A stretch of 37,457 nt of DNA, taken from the UHGV virus genome UHGV-1707574. One strand, written 5' to 3'. The stretch is from a virus. Of the stretch, positions 25,787-32,384 are shown one piece after another; the stretch's first letter is position 1; every line of letters begins with the position of its first letter. The notes below the pieces were generated by a model. It was not told the origin of the DNA, made no database searches, and saw only the letters and a program-made list of their open reading frames with translations. Position numbers and translations under genes: made by a program.

Positions 25787-25803
25787 ATTGCTCTAATTAA
25801 TTT
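25787..25803 (+). promoter_or_regulatory. C1 operator upstream of ssb
   Basis: ATTGCTCTAATTAATTT, 16/17 to consensus, 20 bp before the ssb start. Confidence 0.65.
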
Positions 25804-25822: not shown

Positions 25823-26311
25823 GTGGCACAACGCGGTGTAAATAAAGTCATCCTGATAGGTACCCTGGGACAAGACCCAGATATCAGGTATATACCAAAT
25901 GGCGGAGCAGTCGGAAGACTCAGCATCGCAACGAATGAATCATGGCGCGACAAGCAAACAGGCCAACAGAAAGAGCAAACAGAATGGCATAAAGTCGTTT
26001 TGTTCGGAAAACTTGCTGAAATTGCGAGTGAGTATTTACGAAAAGGTTCTCAGGTCTACATCGAAGGGAAACTTAAAACCCGTAAGTGGACAGATGACGC
26101 CGGTGTAGAACGTTACACGACGGAAATTATCGTCAGCCAGGGCGGAACCATGCAAATGATCGGCGCTCGCCGCGACGATTCACAGTCCTCAAATGGCTGG
26201 GGGCAGTCAAACCAACCTCAAAACCACCAGCAGTACAGCGGTGGCGGCAAACCTCAGAGCAGCGCCAATAACGAACCTCCAATGGACTTTGAAGACGATA
26301 TTCCGTTTTAG
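25823..26311 (+). CDS. ssb: Ssb, single-stranded DNA-binding protein, 162 aa
   Basis: GTG start; OB-fold N-terminus, Gly/Gln-rich linker and acidic tail DFEDDIPF. Confidence 0.95.
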
Positions 26312-26513
26312 AGTTTATGAGTAAAAAACGACTGAAAGAAAAGCGGTGGTCCAGACGCCGACAAAAGCACGAACTCGCAAACAAACGCCAAAGTTGGCAA
26401 TGGCACGCGCTTTTCACGAAAAGAACACCCCGAGATATTGCGTTCGCTGGTGGGAAAACATTCCTGACCCACCTGAAGGCGCAATACATCAGGTTTTAAG
26501 CAGAGGAAAGACT

Positions 26514-27191
26514 ATGAATAACATGACAACGAAAGAGCTTTTGACGGCACTTCCAAAATACAAAAGCCATAAAACAGTTCGCGCCTCAAAAATCAAAGAT
26601 ATCGAAATTATCGCCCTAATGGATGTGGTCCTTTTTTGCAACATCGAAGTCGTTGAGCCAGAAGGGGTAAAAGTCCATGTTGATAAAATATTTTTGCAAA
26701 AACACCGACCAGAAATTGGCGGATATCTGGTCGCTTATGAGGACGGTTCTCTGTCCTATTCACCAGAAAAAACATTTGAAGAAGGCTTTAGTCGGACTAA
26801 CGACTTCTTCGAAAATGGGGTATCGCTCAGCATTGAAGGTCACAATGGGGTGACATTCATTACAGCCAGGGACGTAACTATTTCTGCTGGCGGTATCGCT
26901 ACTCTACAAGAAGAAATCGACCTTGAAGCAGCCGACTTTTCTGACGCGCTGATGTGGCTGAAGGATGGCAAGAAAGTTGCCCGACGCGGGTGGAACGGCG
27001 AAAACCAATTCTGCTGGCTGGTTCCTGAAGGACAGTACCCGGCACGAATGGAAGCCATTAAGGGATATTTCCCCGGCGACCTCGTTCCGTATGGTGCTTA
27101 TTTCGCCTTAAAAAATGCACAAGGTGTAGTTGTTCCGTGGGTTCCTTCTGTAGGCGACTTACTGGCATGTGACTGGTTTGTAGTGGAGTGA
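26514..27191 (+). CDS. Two-domain protein, 225 aa; C-terminal DUF2829/Tad2-like domain
   Basis: ATG 26514 with GAGGAAAG SD; C-terminus FSDALMWLKDGKKVARRGWNGENQFCWLVPEG...VPWVPSVGDLLACDWFVVE. Confidence 0.7.
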   Translation: MNNMTTKELLTALPKYKSHKTVRASKIKDIEIIALMDVVLFCNIEVVEPEGVKVHVDKIFLQKHRPEIGGYLVAYEDGSLSYSPEKTFEEGFSRTNDFFENGVSLSIEGHNGVTFITARDVTISAGGIATLQEEIDLEAADFSDALMWLKDGKKVARRGWNGENQFCWLVPEGQYPARMEAIKGYFPGDLVPYGAYFALKNAQGVVVPWVPSVGDLLACDWFVVE

Positions 27192-27197
27192 TTTAAC

Positions 27198-27980
27198 GTG
27201 GAAAATACTAAAGCAATTCAATACCGCCTGCGTAATGGTCAGAGTGTCGAAGTGACCATCAATAATGATGGTGTGCCTGGCGAAAAGGTTTCGATCTCTG
27301 ATCTGGCTATCGAAAAAACCATCATGTGCCACCTTGGCTTTACTGAAGAAGTGAGCAAAAAGCATGGTGTAGCAATCTGGAGCGCAATGGATACTGGTAT
27401 GCACAGATTCATTACTGCTCGTACCCCAGGGATGACCATGATGGACCTCATGCAGATTGCGCCGCTGTTTGAATGTGAGCCTTTAGATGTATTCAGCAAT
27501 CCAGCTATCTGCCAGCAGCTATATGGTGAGATGAAACTCGCGGTTACCCCCATTGTGCTGCATGAAGGATCGCTTGCTGGCGTGTGGAAAGTGGAGCGTA
27601 TTTCAAGCTACATGCCTTTCCATGTCAACGGCGTAATCACTGGTGAAAATCAACCTGTTTCCGTTATAAAGTCAGACCTCAAGCGCGCAATTCTTGAAGC
27701 AAGTTGTCGAGTTGTCGGCCTGGGCAAACAGTCTTATGTTTCCTTCCCGGCTGGCCCTGAAGGCCCGGCAGAAATTCTGATTATGGATGCCGATCTGCTA
27801 TGGCAAATACAGTTTCTGATTGGCAAAAGCATCATCCGCGCTGAAGAACTCGATCAGTACATTACCTGCACGATGACGGATGAAGTCAAAAGTGTGGCTA
27901 TAGCCAATGCCCGGAACCTATGTCGTGCTGCATTAACAGAACTGCAAGAAAACACCACGGAAGAGGTGGAAAGTGATTAA
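27198..27980 (+). CDS. Hypothetical protein, 260 aa
   Basis: GTG start with GGAGTG SD; stop overlaps the next gene's start. Confidence 0.65.
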   Translation: MENTKAIQYRLRNGQSVEVTINNDGVPGEKVSISDLAIEKTIMCHLGFTEEVSKKHGVAIWSAMDTGMHRFITARTPGMTMMDLMQIAPLFECEPLDVFSNPAICQQLYGEMKLAVTPIVLHEGSLAGVWKVERISSYMPFHVNGVITGENQPVSVIKSDLKRAILEASCRVVGLGKQSYVSFPAGPEGPAEILIMDADLLWQIQFLIGKSIIRAEELDQYITCTMTDEVKSVAIANARNLCRAALTELQENTTEEVESD

Positions 27981-29067
27981 TCGTATACAGAATGAATCTG
28001 CCTGGTTAGCACTGATAGAACGGTATAAAGACAATTGGGAACTGGCAGCAAAAGAGTTGCTTGATATTGAGTTAACACCTCATCAAGCAAAAATTATTAA
28101 CGCGATAAAGAACACCGGAGCCAAAGTCACTGCCACCACACCACATGGTATTGGGGAAACCTCTATTGTGGCAGTGATTAGCATCCTGCAAACAATACTG
28201 TATTCGTGTTCCCGTACAGTGGTTGTTTCTCCTGCGATTAACGATAGTCGAAAAACAATAATTGACTATATGTTCCGTTATTGGGAGCGAGTTACCCAAA
28301 AACACCCTTTTCTTGGCAATTATTTCAGAATACACCCTGACAAAGGGTTGGTGCATATCAGTGAAACATGGGGATGCGTCTATATAACCTATTGTCTGAA
28401 TAACGAAGAGTCTCTGGCTGGTTTTACTGGACCGCACGATCTTTTCATCGTTATTAACTCGGCGGAAATCAGCGATCGCGCTCATGCAGTGATAACTGGC
28501 AATTTAACCAATTATGACTCGCGCCTGCTGTTGCTGTCGAAACCATCGGAACGCGAGAAAGGGTACTTTTATGATTCGCATCACCGGTTGGCCCATAGTA
28601 AAAACAATCCTGCTGGTTTTTTCACGGCGATAACTCTAAACACAGAGGATTCACCTCTCGTTTCTGAAGCATATCTTGAATTCAAAGCCAAAGAGTTTGG
28701 TGGGCGCAATAGCGATGAATATCGCCGATTGATCTTGGGGAAATTCCCCGGGATTCGGGAGTTGATGGAAAAGTCATCTGTTCCCCGTAATATGCACTTC
28801 ACAATGACTGACGGTAGTAAATGGGTAGTGCCTACGATCGTGATCGCCAAACACCATGCGAAACATCACGCTCAAAAACACAACTCCAGCACATTAGACT
28901 GGCTGAAGGCCTATACAATACCGTTATTCTCGGCAAACCATAACGCTATAACTGAATGGGCTAAACAAATCCCCTGGCAGGATGTGGCTGAAGAGGCATT
29001 TGTCGAAAAACCACCAAGAGATTTGCACGAGCACTGTTGGCTGACATCAGAAAAAAGCTTCTCGTGA
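27973..29067 (+). CDS. PacB-paralog: terminase large subunit ATPase-like domain with degenerate Walker motifs and no nuclease domain, 364 aa
   Basis: GTG start with GAGGTGG SD; extensive similarity to PacB residues 1 to about 270 in this same window, but GHGTGKS becomes PHGIGET and IIDEAS becomes VINSAE. Confidence 0.75.
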   Translation: MINRIQNESAWLALIERYKDNWELAAKELLDIELTPHQAKIINAIKNTGAKVTATTPHGIGETSIVAVISILQTILYSCSRTVVVSPAINDSRKTIIDYMFRYWERVTQKHPFLGNYFRIHPDKGLVHISETWGCVYITYCLNNEESLAGFTGPHDLFIVINSAEISDRAHAVITGNLTNYDSRLLLLSKPSEREKGYFYDSHHRLAHSKNNPAGFFTAITLNTEDSPLVSEAYLEFKAKEFGGRNSDEYRRLILGKFPGIRELMEKSSVPRNMHFTMTDGSKWVVPTIVIAKHHAKHHAQKHNSSTLDWLKAYTIPLFSANHNAITEWAKQIPWQDVAEEAFVEKPPRDLHEHCWLTSEKSFS

Positions 29068-29098: not shown

Positions 29099-29407
29099 TC
29101 AATATACGATCTGGTCTACATGATCACCAAAATCATCGTCGTCGTCCTCATCGCCACCATCTACTGCTGGCCAATCAACAAACCAGCCAGCGTAAAGATG
29201 CAGCGTTCGGAGAACATCACTTGCGGGAGCATCAAGGGTGTTAACGAATCCCATATAGCTATTGGGATTTGCCCCAGCTATGGCTTCAGCGATCATGTCC
29301 TCGGTAATGTCACCGGAGATAATGCTTAAACGCCCGGAAACTTCTTCATTATCATCAAATTCGATAATGGCATCTCCACCTAATGGCGCTGCGATTTTAA
29401 TCTGCAT
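29099..29407 (-). CDS. Small acidic protein, 102 aa (last gene of the dar operon)
   Basis: ORF with poly-Asp tract DGGDEDDDDD; overlaps the upstream gene by 11 nt. Confidence 0.55.
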   Translation of the reverse strand: MQIKIAAPLGGDAIIEFDDNEEVSGRLSIISGDITEDMIAEAIAGANPNSYMGFVNTLDAPASDVLRTLHLYAGWFVDWPAVDGGDEDDDDDFGDHVDQIVY

Positions 29408-32384
29408 TATTTAGCTCCTTTGCCACACCTAATAACAGTTCCAGCAATCCGTCACCATTCATCAGTGATGCGGCAGCGGCCTCTTTGTCATGATACAACT
29501 GAAGAGCCATAGAGAATACTTCCGTTGCTGACGTTTTGGAAATAGTCGGTGATTTCTGCCGAATTTTCCCGGTGTTACTTACTGAGGCTGGCGGGTATAC
29601 CTTCGCCATATAAATATTACTCAATCGAGATCTGAAGCACCATTCAGGCTTGCCACGCCCACCGATATTGACGAAAGATGGCTTATCCCCTTCAACATTG
29701 GCCTTCAGGAATGACCGGGCTTTCTCTAACAAACCAGGGTTACTGTACTCAAGATGATGACCCAGCTCGTGCCACAGTGCACTTGCATTTTCATCGTTCA
29801 AATTGACAGCAACAACACCATTTAGATTTGCATATGCCCTTCCCTGGTGGTGAACTACCTTTGATAAGGTCGATATTTTCCCGCCAGTCAGGCGATAAAT
29901 ATCAGCAAGTTCCTTGCGCAGGTCTATCCCACCATTCTGTCCAGCGCGGGCTTCTTCCACTTCTTCTGTGATAAAAGAGTCGGCCCACTCAAGAGCTTTT
30001 TCTTCAGATACGGATGAGTTTGCGATCGCACTGTTCATGGCAGATAACACTTTCTCGTGGACCGAACCCATACTTCGCTGATTCATTTGCCAGCGTGTCT
30101 GCGGGTTATATGAGAATCGCTTAAGTAGTTGGTCAAGCTGCTCAAGTTCTTCTTCACTGACATACTTTTTAGCCTCACCAATAATGCCAGGGAGAATATT
30201 GCCGTTAGGATTAAACGCTCGCGAAAGGAAGAGTTTCAGCGCCCCCACGCCCTCCGATGCTTCAATATCACCAATAACCCGGTTAACAATGGCCGCACTC
30301 TTCGGATTAGCATCTGCCAACGCTCTGGCTACGATTTGCAGGGACGATACGACCTCACGCTGCATATCAGTCCTGATCTCATCAATAAACTCTGGCGTTA
30401 TGCCGTGCTCTTTAAGGATATCCCGGCCTTCCGCCGTTACCCCATCGATATCACCGACATGTTTATTAACACGACTTTGCAATGCCTTAAATGCCTTCAG
30501 AATTCCACGGGCATCATCCGCTTTACTAACGGCCTTCCTGAATGCTGGCAAGAAGTCTGAGTTAACCTCATTTTGTTGATCGGCCCACTGAATGGAGGCT
30601 TCTTTCATCTCGTCCAGAGTCAGATCACCCAACGCGGTATGGTCTGTGAATATGAGCGACAACCTCTGAACCATTTCTGCCAATGGTGATGCCGAATGCG
30701 CCGCGCTAAGGAATGCTTTCACCCTGGTTGGGCGAATGGAAAACCAGTCAATAGCTGGTGGCATATCTCCGTTTTTTATCGCCTGCGCTATCTCGTCAAA
30801 GCCATCGCGCCCAAGGGAGGATGCGTGATTTAACAAGCCGCGAAGTAACGAATTGCTGATACCGAATAATCGGCACCATTTTTTCACGTCGGCAACAGGC
30901 ATTCGAACAAAATGCGCAAGCACTTGTACAAGCTGTTCATCCTGGGGATCTGTGCGGGAAAGCAGCCTGATCAGATGAATAATGTCTTTGATGCCGGATG
31001 CCCGATGTAATAGCAAACTGGTATACGGAGCAACACCGTTGTAACTACCGCCGGAAACGGACTCGAAAAGACCGCCGGATATCCCTTGCATGCCTTCGTA
31101 TTCCAGTTCCTGAGACACCTGGCGAAGGATATCCTGTAACGACACATCGCCGCCGCCAAACATATCCCCGAGCGCCTGGCCCTGGTGCTGTAACTCATCA
31201 TTGATACGTTGCGCCATCAACTTAAAGGCGGTGGCCATACGCTTCGCGCTACGGTTATTCGCGACGATGAACAACGCGAGTGCTTTCACTTCCGGGGCCG
31301 TTTCGCTGAACATATCCCCCTGAGCAATAACATCGGTAATATGCTGGCCTGACTCCTTCGATTGCCTTACCAGGTCTACCGCATCTTTCAATGCCGCCAG
31401 CGCCTTTTTATCGAGGCTATCCGCTGTCTCAATGCCATCAACAATAGTTGTCACAGCCTGCTTGTGCGCTTCTCCTGATAAAGCCTGCATCTGGACAAAA
31501 TCATTGGCTGCCGCATTAAGCGCCGTCAGAACATTACGCATATCCGGATCAGGTTCTTCTGCAACCATCCTTACCAGGCGCGCATCCTTATATGCCTTGG
31601 CAAAGATCGCGTTTTGTATACGGTCAACAAGTTGCCGTGTTGGTCGCCCATCTTCAGTTACAAGGCCAGCCGCCTGTGTGGCACCAACTTGCGTCATGAA
31701 TCCGCGAATAAACGCGTCATTACTGCGGCTAAGCAGATCTCCGCTTTCTGACGGGTTAAACAACGCCATCATCGCCGGTGTTATGCTGTCGGCATCAACA
31801 AAAGCCTTTTCACTGGCTGCCATTTCCTGGAGATCAGAAATATTTGAGTCCTTGGCAAACTGAACACGGTCAACCTTCGTTAACCGGCGGCGCACCAGTA
31901 CCGGAGCCGTCATTGATTCAACCTTTTCAGGCCGTATGCCGAATTCGGTCGCATGTTCAATCAGGTACTCCCGATACCGATCCGCATTACCGTCCTGATA
32001 GGCTTTGATGATCCCCATGGTCCGTCCATTACCTGACTCAACGGCATTGTCCTCACCAATTATCGGCGCGCCATGGCTGGATAAACCGGAATCAGTAAGC
32101 TGAGCTGGCCGCAAATCTTTGGATATCTGGTTAACCTGAAGAAGGCTGGATGCGCGGGTCCGGTCGCGCGGCTGAAGTTCCTGGGGATAGTCAGGATTAA
32201 TTTTCCCATCCAGAGTATTGGATACCAAAAGAGCTGAGGCATCGACGATATCAAACGCTGTTTTTACCTCGTCTCCCTTCGCTGTCACCACATACGAAAC
32301 CCGCCCATAATCGGGCAGGTTCTTTAGCAGCTCGATCAGCGTTTCTATGCTGGTGGCCATTACCACCTGATCGCTTAAGCTCAT
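29397..32384 (-). CDS. ddrB: Large dar-operon protein, 995 aa (DdrB-like by synteny)
   Basis: 995-aa ORF; contains a WHELGHH (HExxH-type) motif near the C-terminus. Confidence 0.75.
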   Translation of the reverse strand: MSLSDQVVMATSIETLIELLKNLPDYGRVSYVVTAKGDEVKTAFDIVDASALLVSNTLDGKINPDYPQELQPRDRTRASSLLQVNQISKDLRPAQLTDSGLSSHGAPIIGEDNAVESGNGRTMGIIKAYQDGNADRYREYLIEHATEFGIRPEKVESMTAPVLVRRRLTKVDRVQFAKDSNISDLQEMAASEKAFVDADSITPAMMALFNPSESGDLLSRSNDAFIRGFMTQVGATQAAGLVTEDGRPTRQLVDRIQNAIFAKAYKDARLVRMVAEEPDPDMRNVLTALNAAANDFVQMQALSGEAHKQAVTTIVDGIETADSLDKKALAALKDAVDLVRQSKESGQHITDVIAQGDMFSETAPEVKALALFIVANNRSAKRMATAFKLMAQRINDELQHQGQALGDMFGGGDVSLQDILRQVSQELEYEGMQGISGGLFESVSGGSYNGVAPYTSLLLHRASGIKDIIHLIRLLSRTDPQDEQLVQVLAHFVRMPVADVKKWCRLFGISNSLLRGLLNHASSLGRDGFDEIAQAIKNGDMPPAIDWFSIRPTRVKAFLSAAHSASPLAEMVQRLSLIFTDHTALGDLTLDEMKEASIQWADQQNEVNSDFLPAFRKAVSKADDARGILKAFKALQSRVNKHVGDIDGVTAEGRDILKEHGITPEFIDEIRTDMQREVVSSLQIVARALADANPKSAAIVNRVIGDIEASEGVGALKLFLSRAFNPNGNILPGIIGEAKKYVSEEELEQLDQLLKRFSYNPQTRWQMNQRSMGSVHEKVLSAMNSAIANSSVSEEKALEWADSFITEEVEEARAGQNGGIDLRKELADIYRLTGGKISTLSKVVHHQGRAYANLNGVVAVNLNDENASALWHELGHHLEYSNPGLLEKARSFLKANVEGDKPSFVNIGGRGKPEWCFRSRLSNIYMAKVYPPASVSNTGKIRQKSPTISKTSATEVFSMALQLYHDKEAAAASLMNGDGLLELLLGVAKELNNAD

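Follow-up and report, generated by a model that had tools for sequence, protein, structure and literature searches.

A predicted Tad2-type Thoeris sponge with an N-terminal Dec-like OB module in a P1-like phage-plasmid

In the virus genome UHGV-1707574, a stretch of 37,457 nucleotides (nt) that we refer to as the window, a + strand gene at 26514..27191 encodes a 225-amino-acid (aa) protein with a Tad2-like domain at its C-terminus. The window is a P1-like phage-plasmid (Punavirus) and is 96-99% identical to vB_EcoM-813R1, SJ46, Ro157c2YLVW, and P1. We propose that the protein is probably an early-expressed, tetrameric sponge of the Tad2 type that captures the signals of Thoeris types I and II and thereby serves the phage-plasmid as an anti-defence protein. 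A DUF2829/Tad2-type anti-defence function had been put forward in a first-pass annotation made from the sequence alone, and it is backed by the Pfam score, the fold matches, the predicted ligand pocket, and the behavior of tested relatives. The protein comprises three segments, all on the + strand: an N-terminal Dec-like OB-fold module (26541..26804, aa ~10-97), a variable, beta-rich linker (26805..26921, aa 98-136), and the C-terminal Tad2-like sponge domain (26922..27188, aa 137-225).

The Tad2 domain and its tested relatives

The C-terminal domain matched PF11195, the Pfam family of Tad2-like proteins that used to be called DUF2829 (E=1.6e-22, 80.2 bits), over aa 141-224 of the protein and positions 2-73 of the 73-position profile. 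With a curated cut-off of 25 bits for this family, the match is far above threshold and far beyond chance. The DUF2829-type motifs from which the first-pass annotation had recognized the family are indeed there; aa 142-162 read FSDALMWLKDGKKVARRGWNG, and aa 208-225 read PWVPSVGDLLACDWFVVE. When aa 137-225 were compared by phmmer to all Protein Data Bank (PDB) chains, ModTad2 (9EIB/8V3E) was found at E=8e-21, followed by HgmTad2/AcrIIA7 (9e-12), SPO1 Tad2 (1e-9), and SptTad2 (3e-9). The structural comparison with Tad2 that the first-pass annotation had suggested gave the same answer, with solved Tad2 structures ranking as the top matches of both fold searches.

In HgmTad2, the pocket for glycocyclic ADP-ribose (gcADPR) is formed by W21, N22, G23, M76, A78, T82, V84, W87, L88, S90, T92, and D93 (Li et al.). 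The HMMER alignment places W160, N161, G162, L199, N201, V205, V207, W209, V210, S212, G214, and D215 at the equivalent positions of the window protein. All six polar or aromatic anchors of the pocket are identical (W160, N161, G162, W209, S212, and D215), and the hydrophobic liners M76, V84, and L88 are conservatively replaced by L199, V207, and V210. The insertion between beta2 and beta5 has the length of that in ModTad2, with a single gap over 88 residues. On this comparison, we class the C-terminal 89 residues as a bona fide Tad2-family domain belonging to the ModTad2-like branch. ModTad2, also called MoTad2 (Myroides odoratus prophage), is a stand-alone protein of 88 aa and does not inhibit type I Thoeris. 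SPO1 Tad2 (gp34.65; 8SME-8SMG) and HgmTad2/AcrIIA7 (8KBI-8KBM) have the Pfam family, the fold, and the six pocket anchors in common with the window domain but only 32-43% identity.

For function, we turned to Hadary et al. (bioRxiv 10.1101/2025.08.24.671296), whose Table S2 lists sequences and phenotypes of 84 tested sponge homologues. Its 21 phenotype columns were read as seven systems with three readouts each, and this parse was validated on three controls that came out positive for type I Thoeris only (SPO1 Tad2), for type II Thoeris plus the two Pycsar systems (MoTad2), and for the two CBASS systems (T4 Acb2), all in agreement with the text of that paper. Tad2_68, an 87-aa protein of metagenomic origin (IMG/VR), is 68% identical (56/82, gapless) to aa 139-221, compared to 45% for ModTad2 and 30-38% for the seven further tested Tad2 proteins that were aligned. 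It was active against type I Thoeris in the plaque assay and against type II Thoeris in both liquid culture and the plaque assay, and it was negative against type IV Thoeris, two CBASS systems, and two Pycsar systems (bioRxiv 10.1101/2025.08.24.671296).

Tad2_68 and the window domain have in common the GWNG motif, the insertion VP.G.YPARMEA.KG.F..D.VPY.AYFALKNAQG, and the end PW.PS.GD.LA.DW. Tad2_68 is a stand-alone protein, whereas the window protein carries 136 more N-terminal residues (the OB module and linker). Tad2 function tolerates N-terminal fusions; the Acb4-Tad2 fusion of Pasteurella phage Pm86 is active (Tal et al., bioRxiv 10.1101/2025.07.12.664507), and forms of HgmTad2 of 151-158 aa exist. 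We infer that the phenotype of Tad2_68 is the best available guide to what the window protein may do.

Translation of the 225-aa protein is expected to run from ATG 26514 to TGA 27189-27191. A Shine-Dalgarno-like sequence, AGAGGAAAG, lies at 26502-26510, and this ribosome-binding site together with the ATG (26502..26516, +) forms the left edge of a gene-sized indel in DNA alignments. A longer open reading frame (ORF) from GTG 26346 exists mechanically, but its frame is not conserved among related phages; a 5-nt indel just past ssb changes the frame between them. The 225-aa protein is 100% identical to a 453-member cluster named 'DUF2829 domain-containing protein [Escherichia coli]' and is covered over its full length by PHROG 872 (E=1.8e-59); the whole protein matched no PADLOC or NCBIfam model.

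The gene order of the locus is lyz (-), ssb (+), the Tad2 gene (+), an isaA-like gene (+), and a gene for a 364-aa protein (+), followed by hxr, ddrB, ddrA, darA, and hdf on the - strand, in line with the first-pass description of a + strand cassette converging on the dar operon. The C1 repressor operator Ossb, with overlapping ssb promoters, lies at 25787..25803 (+; ATTGCTCTAATTAATTT), differs from the operator consensus by one mismatch, and has the same sequence as the site that carries the Ossb annotation in reference P1. A consensus scan found seven C1-operator-type sites in the window against 0.18 expected. Ossb is likely the control point of the + strand transcription unit, which begins with ssb (25823..26311, +; PF00436 SSB, E=1.9e-39; P1 relatives have it annotated as ssb). 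From ssb to the cassette's end, a further consensus scan found no + strand promoter-like or terminator-like site, and the only match in the window to the -22 box of the late promoter LPlyz was LPlyz itself, on the opposite strand. Because the C1 operator is conserved, with no intervening promoter or terminator site and no late box, we infer that the Tad2 gene is co-transcribed with ssb from the C1-repressed promoters, i.e., early.

By homology, the Tad2 domain would assemble into a homotetramer, a dimer of V-shaped dimers, with pockets at the subunit interfaces. These pockets would bind and sequester ADP-ribose-derived alarm molecules made by Thoeris TIR proteins, most likely histidine-ADP-ribose (His-ADPR; type II Thoeris) and/or 3' cyclic ADP-ribose (3'cADPR; type I Thoeris). 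With the signal mopped up, the Thoeris effector would stay off. When C1 repression is absent, in early infection or upon induction, the sponge would be made at once, at the time it is needed. In this scheme the OB module may act as an accessory to the sponge, providing a second binding site, a scaffold for oligomerization or valency, or a protein-binding module.

The N-terminal OB module and its sponge partners

The first-pass annotation had left the ~140 residues ahead of the Tad2 domain unassigned. The N-terminal 136 residues indeed matched no Pfam, NCBIfam, or PADLOC model, but they are not featureless: they hold a Dec-like OB fold followed by the linker. In an AlphaFold2 monomer model, aa 11-90 form a second confident domain, with block-mean predicted local distance difference test (pLDDT) values of ~82-93, and aa 98-136 have a pLDDT below 50. 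The best fold match of the N-terminal domain is the decoration protein Dec of phage L (6E3C; Foldseek E=4.3e-4, probability 1.00), and a profile of 16 N-terminal sequences matched Dec residues 14-92 (E=2.4e-5). The predicted structure of aa ~10-97 is that of an OB fold related to Dec. A motif GYLV..Y.DG...SP..FE, similar to one in Acb4 (PF13876, N4 gp49 / Sf6 gp66), suggested a relation to that family, but the profile comparison gave no Acb4 match for the module.

Residues 12-89 of Dec form its capsid-binding OB fold, and residues 90-134 lack order in the monomer but make up a three-stranded beta-helix once Dec is trimeric. The linker of the window protein occupies the position equivalent to this stalk. 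An assignment of the linker to a trimeric beta-helix found no support, however: its PDB matches were all non-significant (VgrG, E=0.86), and homologues vary in this segment or do without it.

Searching exhaustively with the N-terminal profile (HMMER) recovered 4,997 cluster representatives at E<=1e-3, 2,479 of them at E<=1e-10. No Pfam family covers the module, whose family motif reads LPxY(K/R)CHKxVxAxKI...KHxPxxGGYxVxYxDGYxSYSPAxAFExGY. Among the matches listed, OB-module proteins are mostly stand-alone or short, many of them 83-130 aa, and tandem OB-OB proteins also occur. A Pfam scan of the 129 best non-giant hits returned six partner families, two of which were single weak and unrelated matches. 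The substantive partners are all sponge families: Sequestin (PF21825, 16 proteins), Tad2 (12), Acb4 (PF13876, 4), and the Acb2/Tad1 hairpin (PF24729, 3). The OB module is N-terminal to the sponge in every such fusion.

Giant proteins of 1,781-4,931 aa (P0121-P0125, P0134, P0141, P0143, P0144, and P0149) match the GGYxVxY...SP hairpin of the module only, 9 to 28 times each, which suggests a repeat built from this hairpin.

Sequestin itself was discovered through its fusion to sponges (bioRxiv 10.1101/2025.07.12.664507). By the same logic, the OB module is a candidate anti-defence domain because it is fused to sponges. We consider it possible, though at present a tentative idea, that the OB family itself acts in anti-defence, as one more sponge family with a different immune signal or as a helper domain that sponges use universally. 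In that case, Dec would be a structural offshoot of this OB fold, or the reverse.

One version of this idea is that the OB module belongs to a so far undescribed sponge family and itself binds a signal, such that one polypeptide neutralizes two immune signals, which is what the known fusions Acb4-Tad2 and Tad2-Sequestin do. These fusions (bioRxiv 10.1101/2025.07.12.664507) likewise join Tad2 to another module in one polypeptide, and homologues of the window protein with a C-terminal Sequestin domain exist (e.g., P0099 and P0106). In the published fusions, though, the partner of Tad2 is a proven sponge, whereas the window protein has an uncharacterised OB fold in its place. The exclusive pairing with sponges and its fixed order would suit a dual sponge, as would the stand-alone members, which fall in the sponge size class and carry the invariant polar and aromatic motif CHK...GGYxVxY..GYxSxSP..AFE.GY. 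OB-Tad2 and OB-Sequestin proteins also share one locus. In the sister Klebsiella Lastavirus phages SopranoGao and LASTA, gp55 of the former (L007 2986-3582) is OB-Tad2 and gp52 of the latter (L008 2995-3870) consists of OB, a middle region, and Sequestin, both encoded at the same early locus beside repressor/cro-like regulators. The OB segment is also under purifying selection (see the following section).

The neighborhood of stand-alone OB genes bears on the same question. Two motif patterns alone sufficed to confirm 439 loci in IMG/VR, of which 80 were kept; 41 of the 79 ORFs called in them are stand-alone (<=135 aa). Around 36 distinct stand-alone OB genes, the 127 same-strand neighbors examined by Pfam include genes for the Acb2/Tad1 hairpin (3), Acb3 (1), Acb4 (1), and DNA methylases (3), but also portal, terminase, and capsid genes, and local hidden Markov models detected no Tad2 or Sequestin gene among 202 neighbors. 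This neighborhood link to anti-defence is suggestive but mixed. Other observations count against a signal-binding OB module. When short phage proteins were screened on a large scale with structural guidance, Sequestin, Lockin, and Acb5 were reported and the OB family was not, and the number of sponge families is still given as six in a 2026 paper. The P1-like clade also loses residues that are otherwise invariant in the family (CHK becomes SHK, AHK, or HHG, and DGY becomes DGS or NGY). Taken together, we regard a dual sponge as conceivable but rather doubtful.

Signal specificity and allelic variation

Returning to the proposed Thoeris sponge, several points weigh against it. Three pocket positions differ from HgmTad2 (A78 to N201, T82 to V205, and T92 to G214). 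Close Tad2 relatives vary in specificity, covering type I, II, and IV Thoeris signals, cyclic dinucleotides, and cUMP/cCMP; because specificity shifts among them in this way, the ligand cannot be deduced from 68% identity. In the survey, 19 of the 84 tested sponge homologues inhibited none of the seven systems, and Tad2 proteins that also had a PF21825 or 6E3C-like domain were removed from the test set (bioRxiv 10.1101/2025.08.24.671296). Because of this removal, the OB-Tad2 architecture had been seen but not studied before. A Dec-like trimeric stalk, if formed, would have to be reconciled with a Tad2 tetramer. Finally, the proposed early co-transcription with ssb draws on consensus scans and P1 annotation.

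The variation in specificity also leaves room for a Tad2 domain that targets another signal, namely cUMP/cCMP of Pycsar, N7-cADPR of type IV Thoeris, or the cyclic dinucleotides of CBASS. ModTad2, the closest solved relative, binds His-ADPR and additionally cUMP/cCMP, the latter in a second pocket at the insertion, and the equally long insertion of the window protein has the motif VP.G.Y...IK..F.G..V.Y in common with it. Published experiments have made use of E. coli systems of the Pycsar and type IV Thoeris kinds. Against this, Tad2_68, which is much closer (68% vs 45% identity), inhibited neither of the Pycsar systems, neither of the CBASS systems, and not type IV Thoeris. HgmTad2 binds cyclic dinucleotides through a long insertion, and its cyclic-dinucleotide residue R31 is replaced by V170 in the window protein, as in ModTad2. 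A different target signal thus seems unlikely, somewhat more so than a dual sponge.

We also compared the segments of seven alleles from P1-like elements and found that OB, linker, and Tad2 segments assort independently. The window allele and that of L092 are 53% identical at the amino-acid level in OB, 95% in the linker, and 100% in Tad2, and those of L091 and L096 are 98%, 97%, and 70% identical in the same three segments. The alleles comprise at least four OB types, two exchangeable linker types, and three Tad2 types; in distant homologues, linker 98-136 is missing or different. Between diverged types, the ratio of nonsynonymous to synonymous substitution rates (dN/dS) was 0.21-0.35 for Tad2 and 0.36-0.55 for OB. 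By these ratios, both domains are under purifying selection, OB less strictly than Tad2. The locus is mosaic, and its three segments recombine independently among P1-like elements, which is what one would expect of an arms-race gene.

The alleles also differ at the pocket. Among the alleles at this locus (P1/D6-like plasmids L091-L096; proteins P0021, P0028, P0031, P0036, P0046, P0050, and others), one subset has EWKG in place of GWNG, with a short insertion, such that the Asn equivalent to the ligand-contacting Asn of HgmTad2 becomes Lys. A second subset has a long Tad2 insertion (DKQGASRLTPIKHAANGELEINFDSPLA). The EWKG and long-insertion alleles may differ in ligand specificity.

An optional gene in the ssb cassette

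Ro157c2YLVW and SJ46 carry the Tad2 gene, which reference P1 and 813R1 lack. In DNA alignments, the difference is an exact indel the size of the gene, with upstream homology running through the ribosome-binding site and ATG; in phages without the Tad2 gene, it is the isaA-like gene that begins at this ribosome-binding site and ATG. On its right side, the indel ends at ~27203, four codons inside the isaA-like gene. We found 229 plasmid records with the Tad2 gene, from Escherichia, Salmonella, Shigella, and one Klebsiella, and a DefenseFinder screen reported that 56% of the phage-plasmids of the P1 group and 93% of those of the D6 group have Tad2. The Tad2 gene is an accessory gene of P1-like phage-plasmids.

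Two homologues have other N-termini. P0056, from a 15-member cluster, is a 241-aa dUTPase-Tad2 protein in which dut is joined to the end of the linker, without the OB module. We disfavor a designed fusion; it is probably a deletion derivative, because in D6-like plasmids (L091-L094 and L096) dut, the dUTPase gene, ends 14 nt upstream of the OB-Tad2 gene. In P0023 (306 aa, E. coli), an N-terminus with the tail-fibre repeat PF03406 is joined inside the OB module; this could be a recombinant with a tail-fibre gene or an assembly artefact.

The spacer between ssb and the ATG of the Tad2 gene (26312-26513, ~200 nt) is strongly conserved across P1-like phages. Reference P1 annotates its equivalent as the 5' part of a 320-aa isaA, a start that is probably over-extended. 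The isaA-like gene of the window (27198..27980, +) encodes 260 aa, is 94% identical to P1 IsaA by tblastn, and belongs to PHROG 2326. The 364-aa gene (27973..29067, +; PHROG 5902, E=1.6e-186) is the last + strand gene before hxr. Its product has weak N-terminal similarity to ATPases of terminase large subunits (PHROG 2, E=3.6e-9) and is annotated 'terminase large subunit' in some records. The gene fills the slot between isaA and hxr that IS1 and isaB hold in reference P1, which makes this slot a second variable spot of the ssb cassette. It is not the undisrupted version of a gene that IS1 interrupts in P1 and that would survive there as isaB, as tblastn found no match to the 364-aa protein within L003, the stretch of the P1 reference. 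On the other strand, hxr and ddrB (29099..32384, -; ORFs and P1 annotation) open the convergent dar/ddr anti-restriction block, with 97-99% DNA identity to P1-like phages with DdrB, DdrA, DarA, and Hdf. The genes hxr (29099-29407) and ddrB (29397-32384) overlap by 11 nt at 29397-29407 (-), as in P1, consistent with translational coupling.

This setting also bears on whether the product could be a virion protein, in which a Dec-like OB fold and trimeric stalk bind the capsid and display the DUF2829 domain, with no cytoplasmic sponge role. The homology of the N-terminus to the capsid-binding domain of Dec would fit, as would a linker that, like Dec 90-134, has no modelled structure in the monomer and might be ordered in a trimer only. 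Some stand-alone OB homologues adjoin portal, terminase, or capsid genes, and one OB homologue bears a tail-fibre repeat. Dec, however, is a late capsid-binding trimer, whereas the window gene lies in an early, repressor-controlled unit, the ssb unit behind the C1 operator, and not in a late operon, with no late-promoter box of its own. It is also dispensable, being absent from reference P1 and many P1-like phages; many homologues lack the linker or have another segment in its stead, the stalk region has no significant beta-helix match, and the fusion partners of the module's kin are cytoplasmic sponges. A virion role is accordingly improbable. Least credible of all is the absence of an anti-defence role, as an anti-CRISPR like the family founder AcrIIA7 (described as a Cas9 inhibitor), a type I toxin (one plasmid homologue is labelled 'MW1434 family type I TA system toxin' in RefSeq), or a decaying remnant, given that the anti-Cas9 activity of HgmTad2/AcrIIA7 was not reproducible (Li et al.), no NCBIfam model, toxin or other, matches the window protein, and the frame is intact in hundreds of elements and under purifying selection.

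The anti-Thoeris reading of this gene is well supported. It is not new, because the DefenseFinder screen had reported Tad2 in P1 and D6 phage-plasmids and RefSeq names DUF2829. Previously undescribed are the OB-linker-Tad2 architecture and the wider occurrence of its Dec-like module alongside four unrelated sponge families.

Clinical E. coli, Shigella, and Salmonella commonly carry P1-like phage-plasmids. If the proposed role is correct, a Thoeris sponge in the early ssb unit would provide a second counter-defence, acting at the level of the signal, in addition to the Dar/Ddr anti-restriction system packaged in the virion, and it could influence which hosts these phage-plasmids enter and persist in. 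Should the OB module prove to act in anti-defence as well, it could turn out to be a new sponge family or point to a general way in which sponges are scaffolded, and the P1-like protein would be a two-headed inhibitor.

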